The position numbers and the translations under genes were made by a program. Below are positions 2,079 to 64,000 of a DNA stretch of 64,000 nucleotides, piece after piece. The stretch spans positions 74,586,001-74,650,000 of the forward strand of contig CM059432.1 in the NCBI GenBank assembly GCA_030390025.1, read 5' to 3'. The stretch's first letter is position 1. The number at the start of each line of letters is the position of its first letter. This DNA is from Squalus acanthias. Taxonomy: Eukaryota. Below the pieces are notes generated by a model. That model saw only the letters and a program-made list of their open reading frames with translations, was not told the DNA's origin and made no database searches.

Positions 2079-3689
2079 TGTAAAATTCGCAATTATCGCG
2101 ATTCGAAATAACGAGATAAAGCAGATTCGTTTCATCAGTTTTATTTCAACGAAAAGCTGTCATGATTAAACAGGACACAGAAGCCTGTAAAATGGCCGCC
2201 GCGCCTCGTGGCAGAAGCTTCCAGAATTTCAGTGGGCAGACAAAATGGCGTTCGAATAAACATTTCAGAAAAGATTGGCTAATACGCAGCAAACACTGAT
2301 AAAGACAGGATGCAACCTGTCTGCATTCGACACAATAGCAAAGATATAAGTGCTGGAATCATTTTCCATGCACAAGTAAGGACCATTGTACTGGGCAATC
2401 GAAGGCCCATCCAGATACATCAATACGCAAATTCCCCACGGCTCTACAATGAGAGAGCCATTCACGGGTGATTAAGTCAGTATTCGAGAAGGCCCCAAAA
2501 CCAGTCAGGGAGACTCCTAGCCGGTTCGACAATGGGGAAAGCATTAACGGGTAGTTGGCCAGTTTAAGGTGCTACCGAAACCCATTACAAACAAGAATCA
2601 CCCCATACTGGGAATTTTGAGCGCCAAGATTTTACAAAGGATGAACATTAAGATTGGGCGGGAGATAAGGAAAACACCGCACTATAACTATAGTGAACAA
2701 ATGTCCATCGGCCTCTTATTCGCTTGACTCTTGACTCTTATCTTGCTGCTGGCTGCTGAACGCTCTTATTCCTCTGATTCTCCCGGGGCTGATTCGTTTG
2801 AACTTTGGAACGAGTCACCTCGACGGAGGCCAGTAACCGGGTGTACCATCCCGAGGGTCGGTAAACGGTGTTCTGGACCCGAAGGCCCGAAGAGACGAGA
2901 CGAGACGAGATGAGAAGAGAAGAAGAAGAGTCCATGTGCCGCCGCGGTCAGTAAACCCCGACCACGCCCGAAAATATATAGACCATTTTTGAACTCTATA
3001 GGTTACTGCACGAACTGGTCAAAGACTCTTCTTTGAATTCTACCGACAACCGGTGTCGGACACAGGAAGACTCTTCTTCGAACCGGGCCCCGAGCACTGT
3101 TGAGTTCTTCATGACAACGGGGAGCCCAGCCTGCTTGCAGCAGCAGCGAAAGTAAACAAGTGGGGTACAGAGACCCCTCAAAACACGTGACAGTCAGGCG
3201 CTGCAGCGAAACGAACCGAGTGCCTCGTTTAAAATTCTCCGAAGTATCACGAGTGGTGAGCATGTTTCCCGATCCTACAAATCTAGATTAGTGTAGGTAT
3301 TAATAGGGGAGGGTGGTTTTTATTAAGGATAAAGTATAATGTGTTCCCCTTTCTACGATATGCCGTGCGTTCTTCATTACCATAGACCAAGCTTTATGAA
3401 TGTATGTATACTTGTACTATCGTTAATTTGTGCCTATGACATGTACTTCATGATTTTAGACGCTATGCAATAAAGATTTCCATTTCGTACTATTCAACCG
3501 GGTCTATCTGAGTTTTTCTCTGCATTACTGCTCTCGCACCTAAGTCCAGTGTTAGAACCGTAAGGGCGAGTGGGTCGAACCACTCACAGGTGCTTATTGC
3601 AACAAGGCTGGCCGGAGACCAGAGCAAGCAATAGTATTAGGCAACGAAGGCCTAACCCCGCACAAGCACCTACGACCGAACCCCTTACA
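2079..3689 (+). repeat. Putative 5' LTR (~1.6 kb)
   Basis: Inverted termini TGTAA (2079) and TTACA (3689); AATAAA at ~3469; abrupt CpG enrichment; ends 74 bp before the gag ORF; no second copy to confirm it. Confidence 0.65.
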
Positions 3690-3762
3690 GAAAATGATGA
3701 CCGCGGCACGAGGCTGGCAGCGAGGGAGTAATGTTTTAGACCCTGGTGTGAATAGGTGAAAT

Positions 3763-5493
3763 GTGATGGATGAGAGGGTAGCCGACTATGTGTTTGGGAA
3801 GGTTAACTTAACCAAAAGGTGGATAAGTGACCTGCTGATGGATAAGCGTCCGCTAGACGCAGCCATCAAATGGACAGACAGTAAAGAGCATAAGAAGTCG
3901 GTAGAGAAAGCGGTCTGGCTGATGTGCTACAAGAAGCAAGTCCAACTTTCGGACCAGGTCATTGTGGCACAGGCAGCTCAGATCAGGGAATTGGGAGTTG
4001 AGATGGAGGAAAAGGTCACGGGAGGACAAAAACTCATCGCATCCTTGAATGCGTTACATCAGGAACGCCAGATAGTAGCCAACCACCATGAGGCTAAAAT
4101 AGATTACCTAGAGTGTCAGGTCACGGAAGCGAAGTTAAACGAGGGTAGGATTAGAGAACGGTGTGCCCGCCTAGCTACCCAGATAAGAGCCCAAGAAGAA
4201 AGCTTGAAGGGAGTTAGGGCGGCATATAAGATGGCCCTCGAAGATAAGCATGAGGGAGCCGACTACAGTGTTTGCCAGAAGGAGATAGGGAGCCTAAGAG
4301 AGGCCCTGAATAAGGCAAACGGCATGGTGTGCCTCATCAGCCCGTCAGCACACCAGCCACAGGTGGGTAGGGAATTCCCCAAATCCCTACCAGACAAAGC
4401 AGAGGAGGTATTTGCCACTGCGCCCTCCGCGCCACCCAGCTATTCGGCAACCTGGGTAAGGAAGGAAGTGGTGGAAATAGAAGAGGAGGTCCCCGAGGTA
4501 GGACAATCCCCAGAGGTAGTGTCGAAGCCGGGACCGTTGTGTCCGCTAACTGGTCACAAGAGGGGCCCGAACGGAGTCAATGGGGAGGACGGGGATGTCC
4601 TGAACCAGCTTGTGTTGCCTCACAGCTCACACCAGCTGAGAGCAATGATTAGTCATGTACGGAAGCTGTCTGAGTCAGACGACCCTTCCGTACACTTCAG
4701 GGAGGTAGAACAGACCGCAGCAATTAATGGCTGCGACGATGCGGAAAAGACTAAAATGTTGCTGTTCTCGTTAGATAGCTCGATCCTTCAGTGTCTCTCA
4801 GACGAGAGCAAGAGGGGAAATAATACCTATGAGAGGTTAAGGGACAAGGTCCTAGAAGTGTTGGGGGCGGACGACGAAGGTCCGTTCGTAAGATTGGGTC
4901 AGACAGTTGAGATGGAGGGAGAACCCCCGAAGGTTTTCGCCGACAGGCTGTGGCCAGTATACCAGCGTAGCTGCCCAGGTGCGCCAGGGTGCGATTATCT
5001 GGACGGCGCCAGTTTAACTCATTGGCTCAGGTGTTTAGTAGCCAACAGTTTGCCAGCCGTCAGGGAGCAGGCCAAAGCGTGGTTTGATCCCACTAACCCC
5101 GCCACTACAGAGGAGTCGGTCCTAAATCGACTCACGATAGGGTATCGTAACACTAGGAGCACGGGAGCGCGTCCCCTTAAGGGAAAGGTGCATGAGGCAC
5201 GGCCCGCAGACCCGGCTCAAAAGGAGTGGCATCAGGAGGTAAACCGCGCCCCACAAACCAGTGGTGTTTGTTACGGGTGCGGAAAGACAGGTCACTGGCG
5301 TAAAAACTGCAGGAATCCCTGGAAGGATTCCAGGGAAAAAGCTCCTGCAGTCCGAACCCAAGCGCCTGTCTCTGAGAAAGGAGCTGGTGTGCCTATCCAT
5401 CCCGATGCGATAGAATCAATGTTAGGAGCCATGCGGTCTCTTATGATTTCGCACGGGAAGGTAGCAACAGCCCCATGCAACCCGGACTTCTGA
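3763..5493 (+). CDS. gag: Gag-like protein: N-terminal coiled coil, capsid-like region, CCHC zinc knuckle
   Basis: 576-aa intact ORF; CYGCGKTGHWRKNC knuckle; major-homology-like GEPPKVFADRL; PPSY late-domain-like motif. Confidence 0.85.
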   Translation: MMDERVADYVFGKVNLTKRWISDLLMDKRPLDAAIKWTDSKEHKKSVEKAVWLMCYKKQVQLSDQVIVAQAAQIRELGVEMEEKVTGGQKLIASLNALHQERQIVANHHEAKIDYLECQVTEAKLNEGRIRERCARLATQIRAQEESLKGVRAAYKMALEDKHEGADYSVCQKEIGSLREALNKANGMVCLISPSAHQPQVGREFPKSLPDKAEEVFATAPSAPPSYSATWVRKEVVEIEEEVPEVGQSPEVVSKPGPLCPLTGHKRGPNGVNGEDGDVLNQLVLPHSSHQLRAMISHVRKLSESDDPSVHFREVEQTAAINGCDDAEKTKMLLFSLDSSILQCLSDESKRGNNTYERLRDKVLEVLGADDEGPFVRLGQTVEMEGEPPKVFADRLWPVYQRSCPGAPGCDYLDGASLTHWLRCLVANSLPAVREQAKAWFDPTNPATTEESVLNRLTIGYRNTRSTGARPLKGKVHEARPADPAQKEWHQEVNRAPQTSGVCYGCGKTGHWRKNCRNPWKDSREKAPAVRTQAPVSEKGAGVPIHPDAIESMLGAMRSLMISHGKVATAPCNPDF

Positions 5494-5527
5494 CTGGAAC
5501 CGGTGCAGCCTGCCTACCTGTGTCCCC

Positions 5528-6574
5528 TTGAAAGACGCGCACAGGAGGGGGGTCTCCTGTAAGGAGGCCAGGTTAAAAGAGCAGGCCTTACGGGAGGAGA
5601 ACGCCCGTTTAATGGGGAAAGTAGACGGGCTAGAAGGGCAGCTTAGAGACATAAAAGCAGCCTACAGGGTAACCAGGAGCAGGGAGTATGAGGATTTAAA
5701 ACAGAATAGAAATCTGCAGCCTCCAGCAGGCGAGATTTCACAGAATGCACAAGCAGGGGCGGTGGCCTGTCTTAGGGGAGGGGCCAGACCTGCGAGTGGG
5801 GAATCTCAGCCCCAAGCAGGACAGCAGGGCACACAGACCGGTAAAGCAGCCTGCTTGAGGGGAGAGGACATTCTAGAAAAGTGTAGGATCTTTTCTTGGG
5901 GTTGGGATGCCGATGAGGAAGAGCTCGAGGAGCTCGACCAAGATAGTGACCCGATCGGAGAGGTGCTGAGATCGGAGGACGAAAGGTTCATCCTCGACTC
6001 AAGCTTAGGGGAGATAGGGATTGTGAGTGGAGATCCACACAGGGTGGAATCAGAAACTGCAGGTCCCGAGCCCAGGGGGGCGGAGCTAGGGGAGACGGAG
6101 CCAGCAGCTGTGGTAGGACCACAGGTCGTGACGGTGGAAGTCTCGGAACCCGGTCCGTCAGCCTTGGAAGTCTTGCCCTTGGGGGAGGTAGGGATTGTGA
6201 GTGGAGGACCACATACTGGGCCAAGTAGGGTGGTACCAGAAACTGCAAATCCCGAGTTCAGGGAGGCGGAGCCAGGGGAGACGGAGCCAGCGGCTGTGGT
6301 AGGACCACAGGCCGTGACGGTGGAAGTCTCGGTACCCGGTCCGTCGGCCCTGGAAACCTTGTCCAATGTAGCCCTCCGTAGGTCAGGTCGGACACCCCAG
6401 CCCAGGAAGACGTGGTCAAGTCCCCCGCGCGCCCCCAGGCGTAAGTTCAAGGTCAAGGCAGCCCAGGGAGATCCCAGTCCCAGCGCAGCAGCGACAGGCT
6501 GCGGCAGATCAAAGGAAGGGGTCAGTGCCCTCCCACCGTTGGGAAAAGCTCGTGGCAGCCTTCGCAGAATTTAG
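5528..6574 (+). CDS. Accessory ORF, probably 5'-truncated: Gag-paralogous coiled coil, repeated acidic/Pro region, basic tail
   Basis: 348-aa open frame; N-terminus aligns by eye to the Gag coiled coil; internal ~55-60 aa tandem duplication. Confidence 0.65.
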   Translation: MKDAHRRGVSCKEARLKEQALREENARLMGKVDGLEGQLRDIKAAYRVTRSREYEDLKQNRNLQPPAGEISQNAQAGAVACLRGGARPASGESQPQAGQQGTQTGKAACLRGEDILEKCRIFSWGWDADEEELEELDQDSDPIGEVLRSEDERFILDSSLGEIGIVSGDPHRVESETAGPEPRGAELGETEPAAVVGPQVVTVEVSEPGPSALEVLPLGEVGIVSGGPHTGPSRVVPETANPEFREAEPGETEPAAVVGPQAVTVEVSVPGPSALETLSNVALRRSGRTPQPRKTWSSPPRAPRRKFKVKAAQGDPSPSAAATGCGRSKEGVSALPPLGKARGSLRRI

Positions 6575-6859
6575 GTAGGCCGCCCTGGGAACGGGCGGTG
6601 CTGTACAGTTTATAAGTTTAGGATAAGTTTATAAGTTTAAGTTTTATAGGTTTTAAATCAGGTTAAGTTTGTAGTTTAAATTTTTTAACAGAAAATGGTA
6701 TAATGATGGGAGTTTAGAGATAGGAATAGTTAAAGTCTATCCAGCATACATGTCTTTTTACGTGAGATGAGGTCAAGGGACCCGCTCACCCTTCACAAAA
6801 GCCAGAGACTCTTGGGAGGCTGGCTACAGCATTTTATCTGATCACAGGAACCAGGAAAG

Positions 6860-7981
6860 ATGGAAAGGATTCTGATAGTGCTCGCAACGATCGGATATGG
6901 ATTGGCCTATCGGGGCCTCACCAAGGATGTCGTTGTGTTTGGTTGCTCCGGGGACATGGCCCCCATCGCGACGGATGGGACCGGGAAGCGAAAGGCTGAG
7001 GAGACCGCCACTTATTTCCACAAGGGAAGGTGGCCGGGATGGCTGGGAACGAATTCAACGGAATACTCCAGTGCATCGGGATTTGCCTACAAAGAGACTT
7101 CTTTACTGTGCCCCAGAGTGAGGATCATTGCGCCCAGAATCAGCGTCACCGTCGGCAAAAGGATTTGTTTGACATGCAATGGGAAGGTCCCATTGAGCCG
7201 ATGGTGGTGGTTACGGAAGTTAAGCAAGAATATGAGAAATTCCTCGGTTGAGTGGGAGCGATTGGGTAACAATACCCATCGGACAATTACGGGGACTAAC
7301 GGACAATTGAAAGTCTGTTGGGACAAATGGTGGGAACCGGATGAGGGAATATATGTTTGTATGTGGGGATCAAAGTACGTTTGCCCCAAGGGTATGTCCA
7401 TATTTTTCGTAAACCAGTGGCAGGATAACGGGAAAGGGATGAGGTGGGATGTCAGCACCAGGGGGTGCGGAGCTCCATACTCCCCGATCCCGGTAAATGC
7501 CACTGAACTCATCACGCGCCCACGCAAGGCCCCGCCCACGATTCCGGTGGTTTTGGCTCAGGAGGAAGGGTGCCCTAAAACCACTAAGGGGCCCAGGAAT
7601 GGTTTGGTACTGGTCCCAACAGACCAGATACTATTTCAAGGGGTACATTACGCGGTGGCCTCGGTGATTCTAAATCTCACCGAGGTGCGGTTGCCAGAGT
7701 GGTGCCCCAAAGAGATGGAACAATTGTATCAGGTCCTGTTGACAAACATGTTTAGACAATTCTACGACATAGTAATCCCACCGTGGTGGGACCTGTTCAC
7801 CAATATTGAAGTGCCTTCATGGATCAGGATAGCCTCCCACATTTTAGTTGTGTGCCAAGTAATAATTGTAGTGTACCTATTGGTCGTGCACTGCAAGAGA
7901 GGCAAGCGCCTCACAAAGCAGGAGAACACAGGAGAGTGGAGAGAACGTTATGTGCGCGTGCACGAGGAAAGCGCCGCGTAA
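6860..7981 (+). CDS. env: Env-like type I membrane glycoprotein with Ig-like domain, apparently internally deleted
   Basis: Signal peptide MERILIVLATIGYGLA; Ig signature C...W...DEGIYVC; N-x-S/T sequons; TM ILVVCQVIIVVYLLVV followed by KRGKR; splice acceptor ...ctgatcacag at 6847. Confidence 0.75.
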   Translation: MERILIVLATIGYGLAYRGLTKDVVVFGCSGDMAPIATDGTGKRKAEETATYFHKGRWPGWLGTNSTEYSSASGFAYKETSLLCPRVRIIAPRISVTVGKRICLTCNGKVPLSRWWWLRKLSKNMRNSSVEWERLGNNTHRTITGTNGQLKVCWDKWWEPDEGIYVCMWGSKYVCPKGMSIFFVNQWQDNGKGMRWDVSTRGCGAPYSPIPVNATELITRPRKAPPTIPVVLAQEEGCPKTTKGPRNGLVLVPTDQILFQGVHYAVASVILNLTEVRLPEWCPKEMEQLYQVLLTNMFRQFYDIVIPPWWDLFTNIEVPSWIRIASHILVVCQVIIVVYLLVVHCKRGKRLTKQENTGEWRERYVRVHEESAA

Positions 7982-8924
7982 ACGGCCAGGATGACGCCGC
8001 TCCATTTTACCATGTGTGTTTTTGTAATTGATTGTTAGTTATGAAGCTATGTAACCAAGTTGGGAACTTTGTATTTTAAAAGAGTTGTTTTTGATTATTT
8101 TTAAATTTTGTATTTTTAAAATGGTTGTTTGATCAGTTTTTTTCCTTGTATAATAAAATACATATACAGGTGGTACGAGAGGTGATCAGCAAGTATATTT
8201 AAAATATTACATATGGGAAGGATTTAGATTGTTCTGACTACATTAAAAAACATCTTGCTGCTATGAGATAAAAAGGAAAAAATTGCAATGCTGGGAATCT
8301 ATCTTTAAACAATGATTATCATTCAGCAAACTAAGTTGAACAAACCAGTTAATTAATGAGCATCCTGATCGTGTGTGATCTCTCTTTTTCCTGCTCTCTA
8401 TGGGTGTTTCTTTCTCTATCTCAATCTGTTTCTATGTGTGTGCGGTTCATTCTGTTTCTGTTTCTCTTGATCTGTCTCCTGAGTGTGGGTCTCAGCATGT
8501 GGCACTATTTCTGACTATCACTGTATCTCTTGATAAATTTTCTCTCCCCTTCCCCCAATCACTCACTCACACACACACAAACACCAATGTGATTTGCAGA
8601 AAAATAAAACTCCTTCACCAGACCTAGTCTAATATGAGAGGTTTGTGCCCGTGTGTGTAGTGGCAACTGTGTTTACCAGATGTTTGCAGAATTGTGGCTC
8701 AGCTTTTTCCATATGCTAAGCATATGGAAATAGATAGAAACGCAGAAAATTTTAAAAACACTTATTCAGATGCATCACGTTTTATCCAGATGATATGAGG
8801 TGGGGGTGGGGGTGGGGGAGGACATTCAACTAGCGTGCAAAACTGATGTGAGGCACCAACCCTTTTCAGGTTTGTTGAGCTCAACTAATGGCTACTTCTA
8901 GACTGAAAGGCAAAAAATGTCATC

Positions 8925-19904: not shown

Positions 19905-21095
19905 TGCTAAAGGAGAATGTGGTAGAGTATCAAGGGGAGAGATTGAGGTGGGACCTTGAGTTGAGAGCCCCACTGCCGCCACAATGGTTAAGGCGAATGC
20001 AGTCACCATCAGCGAGCAAGTTTTGGTCAGGCCGAGGATGTTGATAGACCTGTCCAGGATAAAGGTATGGATGACACAAGCCTTATTCAGGAAACTAAGG
20101 ACATTTTCAAGGGTGATGCGTAGTGGAAGGGTTGTAGAAAATTCGCACAGGGGATTTGAAGGGGTTGTGGGGGAAGTAGAGAGCGGGTTAGGAAGGAGAT
20201 TGGAGAAGTTTGCAGCTGGAGAGGCAGATAGGCAGAAATTGTATTGGTGGAAGGGAATACGGCAATATAGTTTGCTCCTTTGTAAAAGCCAACAGTGGGA
20301 GCTGCAGTGAGTTTGGCGGAGGATGGCTTGGATACAGCAAACAGAAGCAGTGGGTCTATCCAGGAGGGACTCAATCCTGGGTTGGCAGCAGGAAGGGAAG
20401 TCACCAGAGGCTCAGCAGGGAGAAAATCATGAATGGCAGATGAAGGGAGAAGTAGGAAGTATTGTTAACAAGAACCAAGGAGGAAGGCAGTGAGAGCAGG
20501 AGAGGAGGGCAGAGTAGGAACAGGGAGGGAGGAAAGGGAGGGTCTGGAGTGACAGCCAAAACACAGGTGAACACAGAAAAGTGGCCTTGAGCTTCATGTA
20601 CAAACCAGATGATTATGCAAGTCTGTGATCGAGCACATTGAGAGGGTCAATCAAAGTCCAAGGCATAATTCATTGCCTTGTGGGGGTCAAAAGGGAGTCG
20701 GGGTCCAACTGGTGGTTGGAGGTTTCAGGCCTGGGTACCGGGTGGCAGTCAAGGTCTGAGGCTTGGTTGATTGGCTGGCAGTGGGGATCCAGCTGATCTC
20801 ACTGGCTGATGGTCAGGTTACTTGGCAAGGGGTATAGGTGAGCAGAGCTAGAATAGAAGTGGTCAAGTATCGGACAATTTGAAGTTTGTGTAGGGTAGAT
20901 GTTGGGAAGCGAGCAAGTCGAACCTGGAGGTAATAAAGGTATGGATGAGACTTTCAAAGACAGTGGGGTGAGGTGGGGACAGAGGCAGGTCATGTTATGG
21001 AGGAGAAAATAAAGTGATCTTGATGATGGATACGATGTGGGATTTCAACTTCAGCTGAGGGTCAAACAAGACACAGGCCGTGAAATTCGGCACCT

Positions 21096-21765
21096 TAAGC
21101 AGTGTGTTCGGTGGCTCCACTTCATCAAGGAGGTGGTCACAGAACTCTGCCACCTCTTGGAACCAGACCTGCAGCCTCAGAGCAGGGCGACGACAGCGCT
21201 GCCAATGGCCCTCATGGCCTTGAATGTTTTCACCAGTGGATCCTTCCAGGCTGTAACTGGCGACATTGCCAGGATATTGGGCTTCCCCATGGTGCAGGGC
21301 GCCATCGACTGCACACACGTGACTTTGCGGGCGCCGCATATCAATGCAGAGATATACCATAACAGCAAAGGCTACCACTCACTTAATGTGCAGTTGGTGT
21401 GCGACCATGCCCAGCACATCATGATGGTGAATACCCGCTATCCTGGCAGCAGTAATGATGCCTCCATCCTGCGTCAGACCACTGTGGCAGCAATCTTTCA
21501 GCCACCACGTCAAACCCGAGGGTGGCTGCTTGGCGACAAGGGCTATCCACTCTACACCTGGCTGATGACTCCCCTCCACAACCCCACCATTCGTGGTAGG
21601 CAATCACAGAATGACAGCCATGCTGCCACGAGGAACCTCATCGAGCAGACCATTGAGGTGCTCAAGCAACAGTTCCGCTGCCTTGACCGCTCGGGAGGAG
21701 CTCTCCAGTACTCACCAGAGAGGGTCTCCTAATTTGTGGCGGTTTGCTGCGTCCTCCACAACTTA
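21096..21765 (+). pseudogene. Harbinger (HARBI1-like) DDE transposase fragment
   Basis: GFPMVQGAIDCTH, SNDASIL, LLGDKGYP and RNLIEQT motifs; deletions and a premature stop. Confidence 0.9.
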
Positions 21766-25801: not shown

Positions 25802-26297
25802 TCAAGCTCTAAGTGATATGCAACGTTGGCATTGGTATCAACATGCAATTCTCCAGTGATCAGCAGGCACCACTCTAGAAGGAGAAAATGAGCAGCAAAT
25901 GCACCTGTCCCAGAAGATGTGCTTTTCTGAGGTATTTGCCCAGAATCTTTAAAATGATGAAGGGATTCAATAGAGTATATACAGAAAATCTTTTTTCTCT
26001 GATGGAGGAATCCAGTACAAGGGAGCATAATCTTAAAACTAGAGCTCGGCCATTTAGGAATGAGATCAAGAAGCACTTTAACAAAGGGAAGTGGAAATCT
26101 GGAACTCTCTCCCCAAAAGGCTGTGGATGCTGGGTCAATTGAAGTTTTAAAGACTGAGATCGATAGATTCTTGCTAGGCATTGTATCAAGGGATTTACAG
26201 CAAAGTCAGGTAAATGGACTTAAGGCCATTGTCTAATTGAATAATTCGATCCAGACCTTCAAAGCATCCTACGCGCTCTCATCCCACGTACTTCTAC

Positions 26298-27881
26298 TTC
26301 TACTGCCTCCCAAAGATACACAAAGCCAACACACCCGGACGTCCTATCGTATCAGGCAACGGAACCCTGTGTGAGAACATCTCTGGATACGTCGAGGGCA
26401 TCCTGAAACCCATCGTACAGGGAACCCCCAGCTTCTGCCGTGACACCACAGACTTCTTACAGAAACTCAGCGCCCACGGACCAGTTGAACCAGGAACACT
26501 CCTCGCCACGATGGACGTATCGGCACTCTACACCAGTATCCCCCACGATGACGGCATCGCTGCGACAGCCTCAGTACTCAACACCAACAACAGCCAATCT
26601 CCAGACGCCATCCTACAACTCATCCGCTTCATCCTTGACCACAATGTCTTCACCTTCGACAACCATTTTTTTACCCAAACACACGGAACAGCCATGGGGA
26701 CCAAATTTGCACCCCAATACGCCAACATCTTCATGCACAAGTTCGAGCAAGACTTCTTCGCTGCACAGGACCTCCAACCAACGCTGTACACCAGATACAT
26801 CGACGACATTTTCTTCCTTTGGACCCATGGCGAAGGATCACTGAAAAGACTACACGATAACATAAACAAGTTCCATCCCACCATCAAACTCACCATGGAC
26901 TACTCCTCAGAATCAGTTTCATTCCTGGACACACGAATCTCCATCAAAGACGGACACCTCAGCACTTCACTCTACCGCAAGCCCACGGACAACCTCACGA
27001 TGCTCCACTTCTCCAGCTTCCACCCTAACCACGTTAAAGAAGCCATCCCCTATGGACAAGCCCTGCGAATACACAGGATCTGCTCAGATGAGGAGGAACG
27101 CGATGGACACCTACGGACGCTGAAAAACGCCCTCGTAAGAACGGGATATGACGCTCGACTCATCGATCGACAGTTCCGACGGGCCACAGCGAAAAATCGC
27201 ATAGACCTCCTCAGAAGGCAAACACGGGACACAACCAACAGGGTACCCTACGTCGTCCAGTACTTCCCCGGAGTGGAGAAACTACGCCATGTTCTTCGCA
27301 GCCTTCAACATGTCATCGATGACGACGAACACCTCGCTAAGGCCATCCCCACGCCTCCACTACTTGCCTTCAAACAGCCGCCTAACCTCAGAAGTACCAT
27401 CGTTCGCAGCAAATTACCCAGCTTTCAGGATAACAGCGACCACGACACCACACAACCCTGCCACGGCAACCTCTGCAAGACATGCCAGATCATCAACACA
27501 GATACCATCATCACACGTGAGGACACTACCCACCAGGTACATGGTACATACTCATGTGACTCGGCCAACGTTGTCTACCTCATACGTTGCAGGAAAGAAT
27601 GCACCGCGGCATGGTACATCGGCGAGACCATGCAGACACTGAGACAACGTATGAACGGACACCGCGCAACAATCACCAGGCAGGAGTGTTCCCTCCCAGT
27701 CGGGGAACACTTCAGCAGTCAAGGACATTCAGCCTCGGATCTGCGGGTAAGCGTTCTCCAAGGCGGCCTTAGAAACACACGACAACGCAAAATCATCGAG
27801 CAGAAACTGATAGCCAAGTTCCGCACTCATGAGGACGGCCTCAACCGGGATCTTGGGTTTATGTCACGATACATGACGTGA
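26298..27881 (+). CDS. Penelope RT and GIY-YIG endonuclease (5'-truncated, open frame)
   Basis: LPKIHK, GRPIVS, DVSALYTSIP, GTAMG and RYIDD motifs; Cys linker PCHGNLCKTC; VVY...YIGET. Confidence 0.9.
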   Translation, partial: FYCLPKIHKANTPGRPIVSGNGTLCENISGYVEGILKPIVQGTPSFCRDTTDFLQKLSAHGPVEPGTLLATMDVSALYTSIPHDDGIAATASVLNTNNSQSPDAILQLIRFILDHNVFTFDNHFFTQTHGTAMGTKFAPQYANIFMHKFEQDFFAAQDLQPTLYTRYIDDIFFLWTHGEGSLKRLHDNINKFHPTIKLTMDYSSESVSFLDTRISIKDGHLSTSLYRKPTDNLTMLHFSSFHPNHVKEAIPYGQALRIHRICSDEEERDGHLRTLKNALVRTGYDARLIDRQFRRATAKNRIDLLRRQTRDTTNRVPYVVQYFPGVEKLRHVLRSLQHVIDDDEHLAKAIPTPPLLAFKQPPNLRSTIVRSKLPSFQDNSDHDTTQPCHGNLCKTCQIINTDTIITREDTTHQVHGTYSCDSANVVYLIRCRKECTAAWYIGETMQTLRQRMNGHRATITRQECSLPVGEHFSSQGHSASDLRVSVLQGGLRNTRQRKIIEQKLIAKFRTHEDGLNRDLGFMSRYMT

Positions 27882-38877: not shown

Positions 38878-40720
38878 AATAGTGCAATAGGGGAGAGAGC
38901 ATGCGCCAAGGTTCTCTTGGTGGAGGAGGTGGCTAGGAGGAGAGAGATCCTCTAACCACAAGGGGCCAGGGGGGCCCTCCAGACAAACTCTGCAAAGGCA
39001 GTGGGAGCAGGGAGCCGTGGCGGTCAATGCCAGAAGTCAAGCCCCAAGGACCTGGATGCAGTGCCACAAAAAGTTCAATGACCTCACACAAGTGGTCCAG
39101 GTCAGTGAATTCATCTTAAAATGCAATACCCCACCAACTGCACCACTAGCCTCACACACTGCTCAATGCACCACACCCCCATCACTCACCTACCAACAAT
39201 CTCTGTCAAACAGGACTCATACCTCATATTCATAGCTTCACCTCACCCTCACACACTTACCACTGCTGCAAGCCTCACACCTACATCTCACAGTTTGCAC
39301 ACACTGCCAGCTATTCAAGCATGACAACCACATCACCCAAACACATTGCATCACACTCACTGAAACACTTCCCTCTCTCTTGCAGGACAAGTTGGCATAT
39401 AACCAGAGGCAGCAGGAGCTAACCGACGGGGGAAAGGAGTGCTTGCATCGCCTTACCCTGATGGAGGAGACGGTGCTCGCCATCATTGGAGCGGCCATCG
39501 ATGAGGCCGTGGCCAGTGGTGGGGCTGAATCCATCGAAGATGACGGTATCCTCATACCTAATCCTTCTCACATCCCACTTCCTCCACATCCCACAATGTC
39601 TTTTGATTTAAAAGCTGCAGATGGTGTAAACATGCACCTCTTACATTCCCCCTCCAAAACCCTACCCTTGTGTCTTTCTTCTTTCAGATACCCAAGAACT
39701 GCAACCTGGCCAGGCAGTGGTGGAACAGCAACAGGTGGAAGAGGAAGAAGGCAGTGATGATGAAGGCACAGCACTGTCACTCGATTTCACATTCGCAGCC
39801 ACTCTGCGTACTTTAGAGGATAGCTTAGAGGTGGGATTGGCATGCGGTGAAACACCGGGCACGAGTGGCCTACAGCCAGGGCAGGGGGCAAGGGCAGTGC
39901 AGGTGCCAGCTCCCCGAAGGGCGAAGTCGCACACGAGTTCTGTTCCAGAGGACTCAGATGAGGACTTCGATGAGGCAGACTACAGAAGAAGGCTGATGGA
40001 TAGGCACAGTGAAATGCTTGGTGCAATGGCAGGCCTGCCAGTAAGCCTGTGTGCAATGTCAAGGAGCATGGAGGACTCCGGCACCAACTTGGCACAGGGC
40101 TTTCCAGCATGGAAGTGATGGACAATTCCATTAGCACACTTTCAGACCCAACCAAGATGCAGCGTCTTATGGCCGATGTCTCAGCTTCCATTGTAGCACA
40201 AGCAGAAGCCACCCAACGTCTGGGTGCTCCAGTGGAAGCTCAGACTTCTGTCATGCAAGCTCAGCTTGCTGCCATCGTGGCTGCAGTTACCAGTGTTCAA
40301 AGGGGCCTGCAGGGTGTCACAGCAGTCCAGCAATCTGTCGCCCAACAGATTACTAGGATTGCTGTGGCGCTGCCCTGGGGGAGTGGCAGTGGCTCAGTGG
40401 AGCATGAACCTGCTGTCCTCTCTCAGGATGACAGCACTCGTCCTCCCACCACTGCCACTCCGCCAGTGCCCTTGCTGTTGCCTGTCAGCCAGACAGCCCA
40501 GACTGCTGCTGCCCATGCCGAGATGTTGCAGTCTGAAACCGAGCCTTCTAGGTCCAGAGCTGCTCGAGTTCCGCCAAGGCCATCTGCAGTCTCCTCCTCT
40601 GAAAGTCAGCAGACTTCCACAAGCTATACTGCAGCCACTGGGGTAGCACTGCGTAGGAGCACTAGGACAGGCAAAGGCACATGGAAGACAGGCACTAATG
40701 GAATGCACAAGGGTGATTAG
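38878..40720 (+). pseudogene. Harbinger Myb/SANT-like gene, 3 exons (~38878-39100, 39386-39545, 39688-40720)
   Basis: PRTWMQCHKKFNDL motif; canonical GT/AG junctions that keep phase; acidic and coiled-coil exon 3; frameshift near 40100. Confidence 0.85.
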
Positions 40721-40879
40721 TTTACATTTGTATGCAATATGGCATGATTTAATTTATAAATTTGGTTTGGAATGTTTATTTTGTGTTGGCTTTTATTTTT
40801 GCATTGTGGCCAAGCGGATGCTATGATGGTCAGTGACAGAGGGAAGGTAAGGTATGGGACTGTTGGTGAATGTGGAATT

Positions 40880-40965
40880 GGGGTTGTTTTTCCTGGTATC
40901 GTAGCTGGATGAGCTGGGCACGGACAGCCCCACCAGAAAGGGGCTGACTGGGTTGCCTCCTCCCT

Positions 40966-41003
<38 letters not shown>

Positions 41004-42014
41004 CTGCTCCTCTTCCTCCTCCTGCTCCTCTTCCTCCTGCTCCTCAGCTGGTTGCCGTATGGCTGGTGGCAAGGGCTGTGCTCTGTGCCAAGTACTGCAG
41101 GGCTCCTCCAGAGTGGTCCAGGCAGCGGCAGCATTGCTTCAGCACACCAATGATATTTTGTGTGGCAGCATGGCTTTCGTTATATGAATGCTGCCCACGT
41201 GTGCATGGGTTGTACACCGGAGTCATGAGCCCTGTTGTTAATGGATAACCCTTGTCGTCCAGTAGCCACCCCCTGGTTTGTCGTGGTGGCTCAAATGCAG
41301 ATGGGACAGCAGACTGCCACAGAATAAAGGCATCACGACTGCTGCCAGGATACTGGGCATTCACCTGCATGATTCGCTGAGTATGGTCTCACACCAGCTG
41401 AACATTGAGGGAGTGGAATCGCTTTTGGTTATGGTACATCTCAGAGTTTACATGCGGCACCCGCAAAGCCACGTGCATACAGTCAATGGCATGCTGCACC
41501 ATGGAGAAGCCGGCAATCCTCGCGAAGCCATATGCTCGCTCCGCCTGTTGCTCTCCGGCCAGAGAAAAGAAAATGTATTCAGCTCTCTTGGAATACAGAG
41601 CCTCAGTTACCTCCCTTATGCAACAATGGATGGCAAACTGGGAGATGTTGCAAATATCTCCTGCTCCAGCCTAGAAGGAGCACAACGCATAAAAGGTCAT
41701 GGCCACTGTGACTTTCACAGCCACTGGCAATGCAGTCCTCGCCCTACTCTGAGGTTGCAGTTGTGGCTGCAGTAGGTGGCAGATTTCAGTGAGGACATCC
41801 TTGGTGAAGCACAAACATCTGACACACTGTTCCTCACTGAGGTTCAGGTAGGAGTATTGCTCCCTGAACACCCTGGGCGGATATGGCCTCCTGCTGAGGG
41901 CCTTTCTCCCCTCCTTCCCCTCCCTCTTCCCGCAGTTTGTCCTGCTCTGTGTCGCCTCTGCTCATTCTCCCTGTCATGCTGTAGGCCAAGTGGAATGCCT
42001 ACTAGTGCACCCAT
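40880..42014 (-). pseudogene. Harbinger DDE transposase, frameshifted
   Basis: LSEEQCVRCLCFTK, SSRDAFIL, DKGYPL and YNESHAATQNII; Glu-rich tail encoded by a microsatellite. Confidence 0.9.
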
Positions 42015-46129: not shown

Positions 46130-49100
46130 TGTGGCGGATCGCCACCTAAATGGGCGCAATCCACTTTTTCATCCGTGGACAATAAATCGGGCACCTTGCC
46201 TTTAAGGTACCTTGCCTTTAAGGCAGGAGAAAAGGAGTGGGCGTGGCCTCAGAGTTTTCAGTCAGTTGGTTAGCAGCCATTTTACCAGGCAGATGTGATT
46301 AAAAGCTTTGTGTTCCACACATGGACTCAGCCTTAATTCGTGTTTCGCGGCAGTCACAACATTGGTGACCCCGACGCTCAGAATGTATTCCGAGCACTGC
46401 AATGGCGGACATGAACGCAGTTTCCGTGAAACTGCCGGAGTTTTGGGAAAACCAGCCCGAAGCCTGGTTTCTCCAAGCCGAGTCCCGATTCCGGCTGCAA
46501 CGCATCACCACAGATGGGACGAAGTACGACTACCTCGTCACATCACTTGGTAGCTCCACAGTTACAAAGGTCTGGACAGCGCTGCAGAACCCACCAGAGG
46601 GGGGCAAGTATGCACATCTTAAGGCCGCGCTCCTTAAAAAATTTACGGCCTTGACATACCAGCGAAACTGCCACCTCCTCGACCTTCCAGGCCTCGGTGA
46701 TGCCTCACCGTCAGACCTCCTCTCCCACATGCTCTCCCTCACCGACGAGAGCCCACCCGGATCCCTCTTCCACATGCTGTTCATCCGCCAGCTACCTCTC
46801 AGCATCCGCCCAGCGATCATGGCGTCCGGCCTCACGGACCTGGAAGCCCTGGCCGATGAGGCCGACAAGCTGCTGTCCGCTCACTCCAGCTGCGACGTCA
46901 CTCCGGACCTGGCAGCTAAAGCCTGGGCGCGCCCCTTACCAGCCACCACGCGGCCACAAGGCCCAGCCACCGGGCTCACGGGGCCTTCGCGCCCCACTAA
47001 CCCGGGCCACTGTTACTACCACACATGGTTTGGTGCCAGGGCACAATGGTGCACACCTCCCTGCTCTTTCAAGTCCGCCCCCGTACCAGGCCCCGCGATG
47101 GCCGTGGGCCACGTGGGCTCCCTGCTGTATGTCACGGATGACAAAACCGGCCGCCGGTTCCTGTGCGACACTGGAGCTCAGCACAGCATCATCCTGGCCT
47201 CCTCCCCCGACATCCAAAAGGGCAAACGAGGACCGGCGCTGGCTGCTGCTAACGGCTCGGCCATCCGGACGTACGGCACCCGCACAGTCACCCTCGACCT
47301 CGCTGGTCGCCGCTACCGATGGGAGTTCATCACTGCCAAGGTGCTCTCCCCTCTCATCGGTGCGGATTTCCTGTGCGCCCACGGCCTACTGGTAGACATC
47401 CCTCGACACCGCCTTGTGGACATGAACACCATGTCCCCCATCCTGGGTGCCATGGACCCCCGTCAACCCGCCGACATGGCGTCACAGTGCCACGCCTGGG
47501 CCACGGATGACTACTCGGCACTCCTGGCCGAATTCCCGGCCCTTACCAATCCGACCTTCTCCGCGGAGGCCGCCAAACACGGGGTGGAACACTTCATCCC
47601 CACCACAGGCCCCCCAGTGTACGCCCACGCCCGCAGGCTGGACCCGGCCAAACTGGAGATCGCGCGGACCGAGTTTGCCACCATGGAACAGCTCGGCATC
47701 ATCCGCCGCTCCAACAGTCCCTGGGCCTCCCCACTCCACATCGCCCCCAAACCAGGCGGGGGTTGGCGCCCCTGCGGGGATTACCGCCGCCTCAACGACG
47801 CCACCACCCCTGATCGGTACCCCGTGCCGCACATCCAGGACTTCTCGGCTAGACTGGCCGGCCGCTCAGTCTTTTCCAAGGTCGACCTGGTGCGCGGCTA
47901 CCACCAAGTCCCCGTCCACCCCGCGGACGTCCCCAAGATGGCCGTAATCACCCCCTTCGGCCTTTTCGAGTTCCTGCGGATGCCCTTCGGCCTCAAAAAC
48001 GCGGCCTAGGCATTCCAACGGCTCATGGACTCGGTCCTTCGGGACCTGAAGTTCCTGTTCGTCTACCTGGATGACATCCTGGTAGCCAGTTCCTCCAAGC
48101 AGGAACACCTCGAACACCTTCGCATCCTGTTCGGGCGCCTCAGCGACCACGGGCTCATCCTCAGCCCAGCCAAATGCCAGTTCGGCCTGGACAAGATCGA
48201 CTTCCTCGGCCACCACATCACCCATGCTGGGGCCATTCCCCTGCCCACCAAGGTGCAGGCCGTCCAACAATTTCCCCGTCCCACCACCATCAAAGGCCTC
48301 CAGGAGTTCCTCGGGATGGTGAATTTCTACAACCACTTCATCCCCAAAGCGGCGTCCCTCATGAGGCCCCTGTATGAAGCCCTATGGGGCAGGAGCGGCA
48401 AGATGGCGGTCGAATGGACGGCAGATGCGTCAGCCGCCTTCAACTCCACCAAGACCGCGCTCGTCAACGCCACCCTGCTCGCGCACCCACGGCCCAATGC
48501 CAGGGTAGCGCTCACCACGGATGCCTCCGACCACGCGGTCGGCGCCGTGTATGAGCAGTGGGTCGACGGCGCCTGGCAACCACTTGCCTTCTTCAGCCAC
48601 CAACTACGCCACCCGGAGGTCAAGTACAGCACCTTCGACCGCGAGCTCCTCGCGCTTTTCCTGGCGGTCCGCCATTTTCAGTTTTTGCTGGAGGGCCACC
48701 CCTTCACTGCGTTTGTCGACCACAAGCCCCTGACATTCGCAATGGCAAAGACAACCGACCCCTGGTCCGCCAGGCAGCAGCGCCAGCTCGCGGCAGTGTC
48801 CGAGTTCACCACGGACATCCAACACGTCTCCAGCCGAGACAATGTGGTAGCCGACTGCCTCTCCCGCCCCGCCATCCACGCCGCACACCTGGCAGTCGAC
48901 TATGCTCAACTCGCAGCAGACCAGATCACCGACCCTGATCTGCTCTCCGCACCTACCAACCTACCAGGGCTACGCCTGGCCGACGTCGCCTGTGGCCCGA
49001 CCGCAGTCACGGTCAAGTGCGACATATCCCTATGTCAACCTCGGCCCGTCGTCCCAGTGTCCTGGCGCCGCCGGGTATTCGAGATTCTCCACAACCTCTC

Positions 49101-50466
49101 CCACCCCGGCGCCCGCGCATCCATCAAAATGGTAGCCAACCGCTTTGTCTGGCGCGGCCTTCGCAAGGATGTGCGTACTTGGGCCAACTCCTGCCTAGCC
49201 TGCCAACGGGCCAAGGTGCAGCAACACACGAAAGCACCCCTCGAGGAGTTTACCGTCCCTTCGCGGAGATTTGACCACATCCACGTGGACATCGTCGGGC
49301 CCCTGCCGCCGTCGCAAGGCCACACGCACTTGCTGACGATCGTTGACCGCACCACGCGCTGGCCCGAGGCAATTCCACTGACGTCTACCACCACCGCCGA
49401 CATCGCCAGAGCCTTCGTCAGCACCTGGATCGCATGGTTCGGCGTCCCCTCCAACATGACGTCGGACAGAGGTCCGCAATTTACCTCTGAACTCTGGACC
49501 GCCGTCGCACGCAATCTCGGGGTGACCATTCACCACACCACAGCGTACCACCCCCAAGCCAACGGACTGTGTGAGCGATTCCACAGATCCTTGAAGGCAT
49601 CTCTTCGAGCCAGCCTCCAGGACGGCGCCTGGACCGACCGACTTCCGTGGATCCTCCTCGGCCTGCGCATAGCGGTTAAAGAAGACCTCCACGCATCAGC
49701 AGCAGAGCTCGTGTACGGTCAGCCGCTGCGCGTACCCGGCGAGTTCCTGCCCACCGCCACGACACCCTGGTCAGCCGACCAGCAACGCCACAACTTCGCC
49801 TCACCGGCGCTACAGTTTGCCCCGGTGCCCATTGCCCGACATGGCGAATCCACCTCACACTTCCCACTAAGCCTGCACCAGGCACGGTTCATTTTAGTCC
49901 GGCACGACGCCCACCGCGGACCCCTTCAACCCCCGTACGACGGGCCCTACAAGGTGCTACAGGCTGGGGACAAATTTTTCACCCTGCAAGTGGGCGACAG
50001 GACCGAAAAAGTGTCGGTTGACCGACTCAAGCCAGCACACTCGGAGCCCGGTGAGCAGGTCCCTGTAGCTCGTCCACCGCCACGCGGCCGACCTGCCCTC
50101 AAGCCGGTTCACCCGGCTGCTCCGCGCCCGGCCTTTCCACGTCCACCGGCGTCCTACAAGAGCCGCTCCGGCCGGCCCATCAGACCGCCGCACCGTCTCG
50201 TCCACACCTCCTAAGCGGATTCTGGGGGGAGCTGTGTGGCGGATCGCCACCTAAACGGGCGCAATCCACTTTTCCGTCCGTGAACAATAAATCGGGCACC
50301 TTGCCTTTAAGGCACCTTGCCTTTAAGGCAGGAGAAAAGGATTGGCCGTGGCCTCAGAGTTTTCAGTCAGTTGGTTAGCAGCCATTTTACCAGGCAGATG
50401 TGATTAAAAGCTTTGCGTTCCACACATGGACTCGGCCTTAATTCGTGTTTCGCGGCAGCCACAACA
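46130..50466 (+). mobile_element. Complete Ty3/Gypsy LTR retrotransposon, CsRn1-like
   Basis: 232-bp LTRs (46130-46361 and 50235-50466); TSD AAAC; tRNA-Trp PBS TGGTGACCCCGACG at 46363-46376; PPT GGGGGGAG; inserted in a CR1 fragment. Confidence 0.95.
46402..50214 (+). pseudogene. gag-pol: Gag-PR-RT-RH-IN polyprotein with one in-frame TAG at 48007-48009
   Basis: KLPEFW; CHCC motif CYYH...C...C; DTG; YLDD; TDAS; integrase HHCC and D,D,E; GPY; the two track ORFs share one frame. Confidence 0.95.
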
Positions 50467-52833: not shown

Positions 52834-54125
52834 GACTCCCACAGCTACCTGGACTACACTTCCTCCCAGCCGCCTCCTGTAAGGACTCTATTCCATTCTC
52901 CCAGTTTCTCCGTCTCCGCCGCATCTGCTCTGATGATGCCACCTTCCATACCAGTGCTTCTGACATGTCTTCCTTTTTCCTCAACCGAGGATTCCCCTCT
53001 ACCGTGGTCGACACGGCCCTCGACCGTGTCCGTTCTATCTCCCGCACTTCTGTCCTCACCCCTGCCCCTCCCTCCCGGAACCACGATAAAGTTCCCCTTG
53101 TCCTCACCTTTCACCCCACCAGCCTCCACATTCAACGGATCATCCTCCGCCATTTCCGCCACCTCCAGCGTGATCCCACCACCAAACGTATCTTCCCCTC
53201 ACCTCCCCTTTCAGCATTCCGCAGGGACCGCTCCCTCTGCGACACCCTAGTCCACTCCTCTACCACCCCCAGCACCCCTTCCCCTTCGCCTGGCACCTTC
53301 CCATGCAAGCGCAGGAGATGCAACACATGCCCTTATACCTCCCCTCTTCCCACTGTCCAGGGCCCCAAACACCCCTTCCAGGTGAAACAGCGATTTACTT
53401 GTACTTCCTGCAATTTAGTATACTGTATTCGCTGCTCACGATGTGGTCTCCTCTATATTGGGGAGAACAAACGCAGATTGGGTGACCGCTTTGCGGAACA
53501 CCTCCGTTCAGTCCGTAAGGGGGACCCCGAGCTCCCGGTCGCCTGTCACTTTAATTCACCGCTTCACTCCCACTCTGACCTCACCGTCCTCGGCCTATTA
53601 CACTGTTCCACGGAAGCGCAGCATAAGCTCGAGGAACAGCACCTCATCTTTCGTTTAGGCACGCTACAGCCCTCTGGACTCAATATCGAGTTCAACAATT
53701 TTAGATCATAACCTTAGCCCCAATCACATTTATATTTTATTTTTTCATCCACCCTTTTATTTGCCCCCCCCCCTTTTTTTTCCCTCCTAGAAGCTGGCAG
53801 CTGTCCTTCATTCTGCCAGTGGATTTCACACTTCTTTCAGCCTTAACCTGTCACATTAACACCACCTCTTGCCTTGAATATCTTTTAATGTCTCTTAATG
53901 TCTCTTAATCTCTCCTTTTGTTCTTTCATCCCCTCCCCCTTTTCCCAGCTTTATCCTTGCCTTAAATCTATTTGATTTCCGGCTGTTTCCAGTTCTGATG
54001 AAAGGTCTCGACCTGAAACGTTAACTCTGTTTCTCTCTCCACGGATGCTGCCTCGCCTGCTGAGTTTTTCCAGCGTTTTCTGTTGTTATTTCGGATTTCC
54101 AGCATCTGCAGTATTTTGCTATCGT
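52834..54125 (+). mobile_element. 5'-truncated Penelope-like element (second family), 10-bp TSD AGTCAGCTGT
   Basis: TSD copies at 52824-52833 and 54126-54135; ORF to 53711 with PCKRRRCNTC and LVY...LYIGE (GIY-YIG). Confidence 0.9.
53991..54026 (+). ncRNA. Minimal type I hammerhead ribozyme motif
   Basis: agtt-CTGATGA-a-aggt(ctcg)acct-GAAA-cgtt-aact. Confidence 0.7.
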
Positions 54126-62151: not shown

Positions 62152-64000
62152 GGGGGAGAAATTCGGTACCTTAGCGCCTCCAGTTAGCGCCTGGCAGGGG
62201 CGCTAACGGGGCGCTGAGGCAGTAGCGCTGCAACGAGGCGAATTCAGCGCCGCACGCCAAATTCGCCGCCACTACGCGTTAGCGCCGGGGACTTCAGCGT
62301 CAGGCAGATCATGGTGTCAGCGAGCGTGCAACGCTCACTGGGCACCCGATCTGCCAAATTGATTATCGCCCTCTGCCTTAGCACCTGGTCCCGCCAGCGA
62401 CATGGAAAGGAGGCGTCAAGCAGGCGGATGCCGGCTCCAGGGGCGCCACTTAAAGGGATCATTAGTAATGAGTCGCGGCTGTCAGGTTAGTGGTGTTTCA
62501 GTGCTTCCTTGTCAGTTTGAGACAGCTCAAGAGTCGAATTCATTCATTCAAAGGTTGTTTAGTCTCCGGAGTGTTGCAGCTTCGAAAAGTTAGTTACATT
62601 TATTCTCTCAAAATATCAAAGTGCTTCCTTACATTAATGGGGGCTATACTGGCAGTCGACCTCGCCCTCCAGGATCTACTGCGGCGGGAGCGTAGGCAGT
62701 GAGAAAGATTGGAAAATGTGACCAGAGGGAGGAGGAGGGCCATCAGGGCTCTCAACAGGAGGCCTTACCCTCCGAAGGTATTCCAAGAGCACTTCTCCTA
62801 CCTCCAATTAAGCGAGGAGCAGTGTATTAGAAGGCTCTGCTTCACCAAGGAGGTGGTCACAGAACTCTGCCACCTCCTGCAACCAGACCTCGAGCCTCAG
62901 ATCAGGATGAGGACGGCTCTCTCAGTGGCAGTCAAGGTCACCGTCGCCCTCAATTTATTCGCCAGTGGATCCTTCCAGTCTGCAACAGGAGATATAGGTA
63001 ACATCTCGCAGTTCATCATCCATCACTGCATCCGGGAGGTCACAGAGGCTCTCTACAGTAGGAGAAGGGACTACATTTCCTTCCCCATCACCAGAGAGAA
63101 GCAGGACGAGCGTGCATGTGGCTTTGCCAGGATAGCAGGATTCCCCATGGTGCAGGGCGCCATTGATTGCACCCACGTGGCTTTGCGGGCACCGCATAAC
63201 AATCCTGAGATCTTCCCTAACCGCAAAGGCTACCACTCACTTAATGTGCAGTTGGTGTGCGACCACAAACAGCGAATCCTCAATGCGAATGCCCGCTATC
63301 CTGGCAGCAGCCACGATGCCTTCATCCTGCGCCAGACCGGTGTTCCAGCACTCTTCCAGCCACCACATCAAGCTCACAGCTGGCTGGTCAGAGACAAGGT
63401 CTATCCGCTCTCCACCTGGCTCATGACTCCCCTCCGCAACCCCAACACTCCTGCACAGCACTCATATAATGAGAGCCATGCTGCCACCAGGAACATCATT
63501 GAGCAGACCATCGGGGTGAATTAATAAATTTATCAATAATCAGTGAACACATCTTTACAACAACAATATTAACTATTCACCCTTGTGCAATCCCTTCGTG
63601 CCTGTCGTTACTGTGCCTTTGCCTACTCTAGTGCTCCTATGAAGTGTCGGCCCAGTGGCTGCAGCACGGCTGGTGGAAGGCTGCTGAGTGTCCGTGCGGG
63701 AGACTTCAGATGGCCTTGCAGGATGCCCTCGAACAGCTCTGGGCTTGGAAGGCATGGCTGTAGACTGCACCACCTCAGCATGGGCGGCAGCAGTCTGGGC
63801 TGGCTGGATGACAGGCAGCGACAAGGGCAATGGCGGAGTGGCAGTGGTGGGAGCAGGAATGCTATCATCGTGAGAGAGGACTGCAGGGTCCTGTTCCACA
63901 GACCCACTGCCACTCCCTCGGGGCAGGACCTCAGCATCCCCAGCAATCTGTTGAAGCACAGATTACCGGCCTGCTGCAACACCGTGAAAGCCCCGGTTGA
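62152..64000 (+). mobile_element. Harbinger transposon running off the window end
   Basis: taa followed by TIR GGGGGAGAAATTCGG; transposase on +; Myb gene 3' end on - (63573-64000, ending LHKGE). Confidence 0.9.
62637..63524 (+). pseudogene. Harbinger DDE transposase, TGA at 62700 and 3'-truncated
   Basis: ATG at 62637 is in frame with the 62709 ORF; GAIDCTH, SHDAFIL and RNIIEQTIG motifs. Confidence 0.9.

Follow-up and report, generated by a model that had tools for sequence, protein, structure and literature searches.

A decayed pol-less endogenous retrovirus in Squalus acanthias and a pol-replacing cassette present in three retroviral families

How can a retrovirus-like genome without pol become abundant, and what is encoded by the reading frame that stands in place of pol? 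This question is raised by a locus of the Squalus acanthias genome (assembly GCA_030390025.1, contig CM059432.1, positions 74,586,001 to 74,650,000), where an element with one long terminal repeat (LTR), gag, a second open reading frame (ORF2) and env is found on the forward strand. The whole analyzed stretch of 64,000 nucleotides is called the window here. We consider it very likely that the element is a decayed pol-less endogenous retrovirus (ERV), which spread with protease (PR), reverse transcriptase (RT) and integrase (IN) borrowed from helpers that resemble snakehead retrovirus (SnRV), and that a cassette now found in three families was moved between them by recombination.

Layout and decay of the window copy

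The element spans positions 2079..8182 (+) in the order LTR-gag-UGA-ORF2-env, and homology to its sister copies stops at 8182. It consists of the following features:

2079..3689, +: 5' LTR (TG...CA) of 1,611 bp, with 84-94% match to both LTRs of sister copies
3695..3712, +: primer-binding site (PBS), degenerate in the window copy; sisters have either of two TGGCGACC-type sites at the same place
3694..5493, +: gag, with a coiled coil, a capsid region assigned by position and one CCHC knuckle; the same gene precedes pol of the helpers
5455..5786, +: pol-replacing cassette, consisting of the gag end, the UGA stop (5491-5493), a protease stub, a family-D Gag coil and a bridge to the Pol tail
5779..6574, +: C-terminal acidic/proline-rich tail of Pol (post-integrase), with an internal repeat of 186 bp and 94-96% DNA identity to the end of the group-A helper Pol in the same frame
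6860..7981, +: env remnant with signal peptide, a weak Ig-like region (~7133-7360), an F-like start, a transmembrane segment (TM) and a tail
7982..8182, +: 3' untranslated remnant, without the ~235 bp that follow in the sisters and without a 3' LTR

The PBS is presumably of the tRNA-Arg type. Both of its types, which overlap the gag start codon, were seen among L002-L012 and L053-L066.

The gag frame (3760-5493) is open over 577 codons from stop to stop, with 575 aa from the methionine at 3766, ORF2 (5465-6574) comprises 369 codons and the env frame (6842-7981) encodes 373 aa from the methionine at 6860. When the bases of the element were shuffled 300 times, the longest forward frame reached 205 codons and none of the 300 shuffles attained 348. 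The LTR and the three long frames described in the initial annotation are real. Its statements on missing PR, RT, IN and 3' LTR and on an elevated CpG content are equally confirmed: a frame and Pfam scan of the element detected none of the three enzymes, a repeat search revealed no second LTR anywhere in the 64-kb window, and the observed/expected CpG ratio is 0.73 inside the element, 0.32 and 0.39 in the flanks and 0.32-0.44 outside as a whole. The CCHC knuckle occupies aa 501-516 of Gag (Pfam E 0.001, marginally below the threshold), and a profile search with Gag likewise recovered the zinc knuckle alone.

The frames are nevertheless not intact genes, because gag contains a stop, ORF2 a frameshift and env a deletion, while the PBS is degenerate and the 3' end is lost. 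The gag stop (3757-3759) lies in frame, 22 codons past the ATG at 3694 that is used by sister Gags. Due to a single-base frameshift near 5540, at the start of ORF2, the latter no longer shares the frame of the gag stop, behind which only 22 codons are open, compared with 339-405 codons in 23 of 33 pol-less copies. Env is short by 410 of 783 codons due to a 1,230-bp in-frame deletion at ~7765, which takes out the cleavage site, the fusion peptide and the heptad repeats and whose junction occurs only once in the genome. Of the two deletion junctions originally proposed, the one at ~7770 is thus a private event of one copy, whereas the one at ~5535 does not mark a simple deletion but belongs to the cassette at 5455-5786. 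Judged from its sequence, the window copy is dead, decayed ERV debris, and the loss of the 3' end and of the fusion core came later.

A pol-less family and the probable origin of its cassette

The window was searched against its 3.7-Gb assembly, and the DNA search gave 27 scored places. Twenty sisters were picked by similarity to the window, and all other samples were drawn from ranked lists and not at random. Env continued past the junction of the window copy in all 20 fetched sisters, 19 of which had a 3' LTR, and 4-bp target-site duplications were detected by script in six of nine sisters and additionally in L008. Among 150 listed Gag matches, a non-random set of 18 elements included ten with pol and eight with the window layout. 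A 24-nt marker of the pol-less form occurred at 1,158 exact places and a protease marker of the pol-bearing relatives at 1,789, with no occurrence of the reversed controls. These findings support the proposal of a non-autonomous family with many copies, whose pol-bearing parents reside in the genome as well. As an observation on copy numbers, L004 (chromosome) and L005 (unplaced contig) have identical flanks and represent a haplotype duplication that inflates the counts.

The two forms are closely related. Outside pol, group-A helpers share 92-96% of their sequence with the window; group-B helpers are 98-99% identical to pol-less copies, and unbroken frames of 1,495-1,496 codons hold 16 of the 150 protease matches listed. 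In the fetched loci, the pol-less marker was located behind the protease stub in 50 of 50 matches, 48 of them with an intact stop. In the gag tree, pol-bearing copies are intermixed with pol-less ones, and starred branches force at least five changes of label; this pattern fits a continual exchange between both forms.

The LTRs of single copies differ by 0.5-1.9% in nine out of ten sisters in the first group-A set (the remaining one gave a poor partial match) and by 0-0.4% in group B, where six of nine pairs show no mismatch over 578-850 bp. At a rate of 2.2e-10 per site per year, as assumed in PMC4422223, a mismatch of 1% corresponds to ~23 million years. The copies of group B, in contrast, are very young and essentially current. 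All three frames are open in seven of nine group-B copies, and the 38 gag ends of this group comprise 20 pol-less, 16 pol-bearing and two unclassified ones, with Gag proteins 67-71% identical to that of the window.

Several further copies were recorded. L027 (C3:64.285-64.323 Mb) consists of six tandem pol-less units with a spacing of 6.4 kb and a common env deletion different from that of the window; two adjacent units are 99.9% identical. The pol-less L037 has a rearranged cassette together with gag and env nearly identical to a pol-bearing subgroup and is likely a recent recombinant. A fifth related family (L113, L120-L124) has a Gag 43-44% identical to that of the window and a shortened region past the gag stop. 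Finally, contigs of four sequencing runs from two other organisms, tentatively taken for RNA, covered all 30 bins of the element, mostly with 90-99% likeness, and continued into undeleted env at 7767; this coverage shows relatives and not transcription. The shark-like host assumed in the initial annotation is supported, as a cartilaginous fish, by the nearest database relatives, which come from skate, sawshark, smooth-hound and bamboo shark.

The initial annotation had likened the element to lokiretroviruses, which have an additional SMC-like coiled-coil frame. ORF2 is not such a gene: there was no SMC match in Pfam, and the parts could be traced to protease, a foreign Gag and the Pol tail, so that ORF2 is a chimera of a protease stub, a foreign Gag coiled coil and the Pol tail. 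The stretch upstream of the tail is missing from group-A helpers, and its longer forms match Gag coiled coils at 32-40%. A copy of the element's own gag was rejected as the source, with 35-40% aa identity and no DNA match, compared with 88-90% DNA identity to another family. This family, termed D, came to light when a related Gag coil served as query against the assembly and 20 of the matching loci were retrieved. Three of these belong to family D, which is old and pol-bearing, has a Gag ~35% identical to that of the window and contains the coil piece inside its own Gag, with the 88-90% DNA identity distributed over two segments. Another eight loci (family C) are pol-less. Their cassette follows a Gag that shares ~50% identity with that of the window; their gag is 95-97% identical to that of pol-bearing C copies, and their tail and env are of the C type.

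Altogether, a cassette of 330-470 bp stands in place of pol in three families (A, B and C), whose Gags are only ~50-70% identical, whereas the cassettes are 87-100% identical between families. At strict scoring, the cassette alone aligned between A and C (93-96% over 330-470 bp), plus a part of env at 78%. The cassettes of the window and of family C share 93-94% of their DNA, and over 216 nt a long-form cassette of group A reaches 96-100% identity with five of the seven C cassettes, one of which has the identical sequence. The end of the window Gag differs from that of its helper because the cassette carries the last gag codons and the stop along. The cassette is thus shared by three otherwise distant families, and the mosaic identities indicate that it likely jumps between them. 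At the right end, it is similar to the beginning of the C-type Pol tail, which makes an origin in family C likely. We infer that pol was probably exchanged for part of the family-D gag in a single event, for which family C is the most likely place. Our literature searches, which covered mostly abstract openings and had subscription journals and Repbase outside their scope, found no pol-replacing cassette common to several families.

Regarding translation of the cassette, gag ended in UGA in 40 of the 42 copies in which the motif was found (it was not found in three of 45), and CUR followed the stop in 41 of 42. ORF2 is open to its usual end in 23 of 33 pol-less copies, which fall into 11 length classes. 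An in-frame duplication of the coil block was observed in seven of nine copies of group B (L053-L062), and other in-frame coil deletions occur in some group-A copies.

These data can be combined into a possible life cycle. In the helpers, gag would be read through the UGA into PR-RT-tether-RNase H-IN and the tail, as suggested by the in-frame UGA-CUR. The pol-less genome retains LTRs, PBS, gag, env and the stop and would yield Gag, Env and a readthrough Gag-coil-tail fusion. Its RNA may be co-packaged with helper Gag-Pol and then reverse-transcribed and integrated in trans, and template switching between co-packaged RNAs would exchange pol for the cassette and place it onto new backbones, consistent with the mosaic identities.

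Helper Pol and an F-like Env

The helper Pol contains, in this order, protease, RT, a degenerate RNase H (tether), a second RNase H, integrase and an SH3-like end (RT_RNaseH at 470-602, RNase_H at 650-792) and terminates in an acidic, proline-rich tail of 277 aa. Its closest relatives among the matches listed are ERVs of frog, coelacanth and caecilian with ~50% identity, and the top matches carry automatic NYNRIN-like names.

An RT phylogeny of the parent had been proposed as a test for an assignment to the lokiretroviruses. The tree was calculated with 48 rows and rooted on 11 Gypsy-type rows (73 of 120 Pol matches were left out); lokiretroviruses were represented by two near-identical eel proteins, chosen by their motif match to the Loki-Aro row. 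The helper was placed inside the retrovirus clade and separated from Loki by a branch with 100/99 support, and a constrained tree uniting both was rejected by the approximately unbiased (AU) test (p=0.004). It groups with frog and coelacanth ERVs (90/94) in a poorly resolved basal grade together with SnRV and ERV-L/S. The motifs agree with this placement. In the supplement alignment of PMC7947760, as far as excerpted, the motif ISNGFWS is confined to SnRV rows at three places; P0026 has the SnRV RT motifs, P0040 and P0047 have those of Loki-Aro, and the helper RT fits the SnRV row and not the Loki-Aro row. In the genome table of the same source, six cartilaginous-fish assemblies are without the asterisk that seems to flag Loki-positive ones. 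Metaviridae (Ty3/Gypsy) were likewise rejected as the parent group, with the RT outside the Gypsy clade and two RNase H domains in Pol instead of one. The parent is thus neither Loki nor Gypsy; by RT tree and motifs, the helper is a retrovirus best placed in the SnRV-like/class III grade.

The full-length Env of a sister (783 aa) comprises a signal peptide, an RQRR site in front of a stretch that resembles a fusion peptide, long helices, a beta region rich in Cys and a TM. A structure was predicted from an alignment of 38 sequences (11 of 49 left out), with a mean predicted local distance difference test score (pLDDT) of 61 and of 80-95 in the core. Foldseek matched this model to the F protein of paramyxo-/pneumoviruses (1ztm, E 2e-11), and residues 245-652 aligned to 8tvg with Z 12.8 and a root-mean-square deviation of 6.4 over 323 residues at only 10-14% identity. 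An Env profile also matched foamy gp130 weakly (E 0.004). Sequence searches against Pfam and PDB retrieved no F family and no PF00523; only profile and fold searches found the likeness. The full-length sister Env is accordingly predicted to fold like paramyxovirus F, and the likeness to F proteins of Mononegavirales noted earlier is borne out at the level of predicted structure. Relatives of this Env are present in sharks, skates and frogs, and an SnRV Env was not identifiable among the Env matches. Predicted Env structures of the walleye epsilonretroviruses WEHV-1 and WDSV also match the F-like model (E 2e-12 and 4e-10).

Evidence for the annotated immunoglobulin (Ig) part of env turned out to be weak. 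In the N-terminal region, Pfam Ig_3 matched with E 0.011-0.13 in the window and 0.0085 in one relative, and two other relatives gave Ig/V-set matches at the same place, all below the cut-off; the pLDDT of the full model in this region is 40-56. A PDB profile search for an Ig fold remained empty, and a profile comparison with the relative bearing the V-set gave nothing in the region. Ig-like matches were also seen at the env start of the frog relative P0007 (residues 1214-1291) and of another relative, P0160 (residues 25-96). The recurrent position suggests that an Ig-plus-F layout of Env is lineage-wide.

Alternative explanations and known systems

Could the element nevertheless be a deleted lokiretrovirus with an SMC-like accessory frame, as the initial annotation assumed? 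The tether together with a second RNase H and the F-like Env are both Loki features (PMC7947760), the N-terminal coiled coil of Gag resembles Bik-1, and the top Pol matches are auto-named NYNRIN-like. Dual RNase H is, however, found in all retroviruses, and foamy viruses also have an F-like Env (PMC11468914), while the 100/99 branch, the AU test (p 0.004), the SnRV-type motifs and the composition of ORF2, in which no smc gene is left to explain, separate the two lineages; we regard this origin as very unlikely. Even less credible is a co-option of the window locus by the host, in which Gag and a fusion-dead, membrane-anchored Ig-like Env would act as a receptor blocker. The env deletion is in frame and spares signal peptide, N-terminal region and TM, and there is a zebrafish precedent for multi-copy Gag co-option. 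Against this, one third of deletions are in frame by chance, the junction is unique to the window copy, gag and ORF2 are disrupted, the PBS is degenerate, the 3' end is gone, and the terminal branches (0.016 for gag, 0.012 for env) are sister-like; the suggestion of a provirus under co-option is therefore not supported. Somewhat less improbable, yet still unlikely, is a spread of the cassette by DNA-level gene conversion between integrated proviruses instead of template switching in particles. Thousands of related proviruses and tandem arrays would provide the substrate, but the homology of the flanks between A and C is low (65-72% DNA), and a swap of 3.7 kb for 0.4 kb with short-homology borders fits RT template switching, for which such exchanges are typical.

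Whether the cassette has a function is a separate issue. From variants shared in 23 group-A pol-less copies, unless stated otherwise, we determined ratios of nonsynonymous to synonymous changes (N/S); L005 (the duplicate of L004), L037 and L060 were omitted from the group-A counts and L107 from the long-form table due to a frameshift. The ratio was 0.24 for gag, 0.14 for env (0.07 in group B) and 0.27 for the coil insert (7 N, 11 S, p 0.006), and 0.25 for the cassette in comparison with the family-D donor (6 N, 10 S, p 0.006), while the Pol tail reached ~1.2-1.7 (1.17 in group A). The coil cannot be refreshed from helpers. Since it carries a signal in group A (0.27) but none in group B, we put the chance that a Gag-coil fusion does anything at about even. 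With nearly the same probability, the cassette is a neutral passenger of pol-less genomes that are shorter or better packaged, with coil and tail giving no useful protein and the frame alone, or nothing, under constraint, a view which concerns cassette function only and is compatible with the remainder of our interpretation. The tail ratio near 1 and the weak or absent coil signal in group B and in the long forms speak for it, as does the bovine D-type ERVK, which spreads without a functional gene (PMC10924933). It accounts less well for the UGA-CUR context and the open frame, which persist across many length changes, for the group-A coil ratio, and for the dominance of a single cassette, rather than many independent pol deletions, among the sampled pol-less copies of three families. 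More speculative, and in our opinion less likely than not, is a selfish retroviral module that replaces pol, keeps a leaky UGA to produce a minority Gag with a foreign coil, gains in cis during assembly or packaging and hops by template switching between at least three helper families, whose Gags are only 50-70% identical, outliving each. If true, the retained and constrained env would mean that these genomes spread as infectious satellites and not as intracellular retrotransposons.

Several points weigh against a helper-dependent spread from an SnRV-like source with a constrained cassette. The Pol tail is neutral at the amino-acid level. Selection on the coil has thin support: the group-B coil shows 8 N and 1 S singletons with one shared S and hence no selection signal, the pooled coil ratio is 0.42 (p 0.024), and the long-form cassettes have 5 N and 3 S shared changes. 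Some of the changes counted between donor and cassette fall on the Gag branch of the donor itself, and the low ratios of gag and env may have been imported from helpers by recombination instead of reflecting selection on pol-less genomes. The env tree forces only two changes of the pol label, with a clustering no stronger than in shuffles, and the marker counts of 1,158 and 1,789 are swollen by haplotype duplicates and tandem units and overlook copies in which the marker has mutated. SnRV and the helper RT form no supported clade, in a tree without foamy, lenti, beta and delta RT and with only two near-identical Loki rows. Trans-mobilisation, readthrough and expression, finally, are proposed on the basis of sequence data, namely layout, copy numbers, mosaic identities and stop context.

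Apart from this element, the window contains an LTR retrotransposon at 46130-50466, which we take to be Gypsy-like, with 232-bp LTRs of 96% likeness; of its two frames (546 and 734 codons), the latter contains a YLDD RT motif. Long frames at 26241-27878 and 52836-53708 presumably belong to Penelope-type RT elements, and three copies of a repeat (21013-21729, 40013-41925 and 62703-63994), which are related and in part inverted, contain transposase-like frames and are, we assume, Harbinger-like.

Returning to the pol-less ERV, the traits of a non-autonomous ERV subfamily are present: many insertions with one internal junction, LTRs, target duplications and near-identical coding-competent helpers. 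The mouse IAP 1-delta-1 elements (PMC6466679) are likewise non-autonomous and trans-mobilised with an in-frame gag-pol deletion product, and the IAP fusion protein is reported to be cis-acting. They are, however, env-less and result from a plain deletion, whereas here gag and env are full and a foreign Gag coil follows a presumed readthrough stop in three families. The C- and D-types of bovine ERVK[2-1-LTR], subclades of which some are competent and others defective, are likewise distinguished by a central segment, amplify together and recombine (PMC10924933); unlike the family described here, the D-types have no intact reading frame and belong to a single family. Defective ERVs are usually tied to one helper family. 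The occurrence of one cassette on three backbones this far apart implies that divergent retroviruses were packaged together and recombined in a germ line. Donor, origin, recipients and very young copies provide a natural series for asking whether the Gag fusion acts in cis.

The helper shares RT motifs, tree grade and a low-complexity Pol tail with SnRV, clade Huo and class III ERVs (PMC6001957), and lineage I of the elephant-shark CmiERV, of the same grade, is known from cartilaginous fish (PMC4422223). It differs from SnRV in that no supported sister relationship exists and the nearest Pols are those of frog and coelacanth ERVs at ~50%. Lokiretroviruses (PMC7947760) and BHIKHARI (bioRxiv 2024.03.25.586437) are alike in F-like Env, dual RNase H, coiled-coil Gag and non-autonomous offshoots, but the helper RT lies outside Loki, an smc gene is missing here and Bik retains gag alone. 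The predicted fold of Env is shared with foamy Env and paramyxovirus F, the class Ib fusogens (PMC11468914), with an extra N-terminal, possibly Ig-like region in our family. An F-like Env on a retroviral RT outside Loki would thus join the foamy and Loki cases and bears on the idea that F-type fusogens are ancestral in retroviruses.

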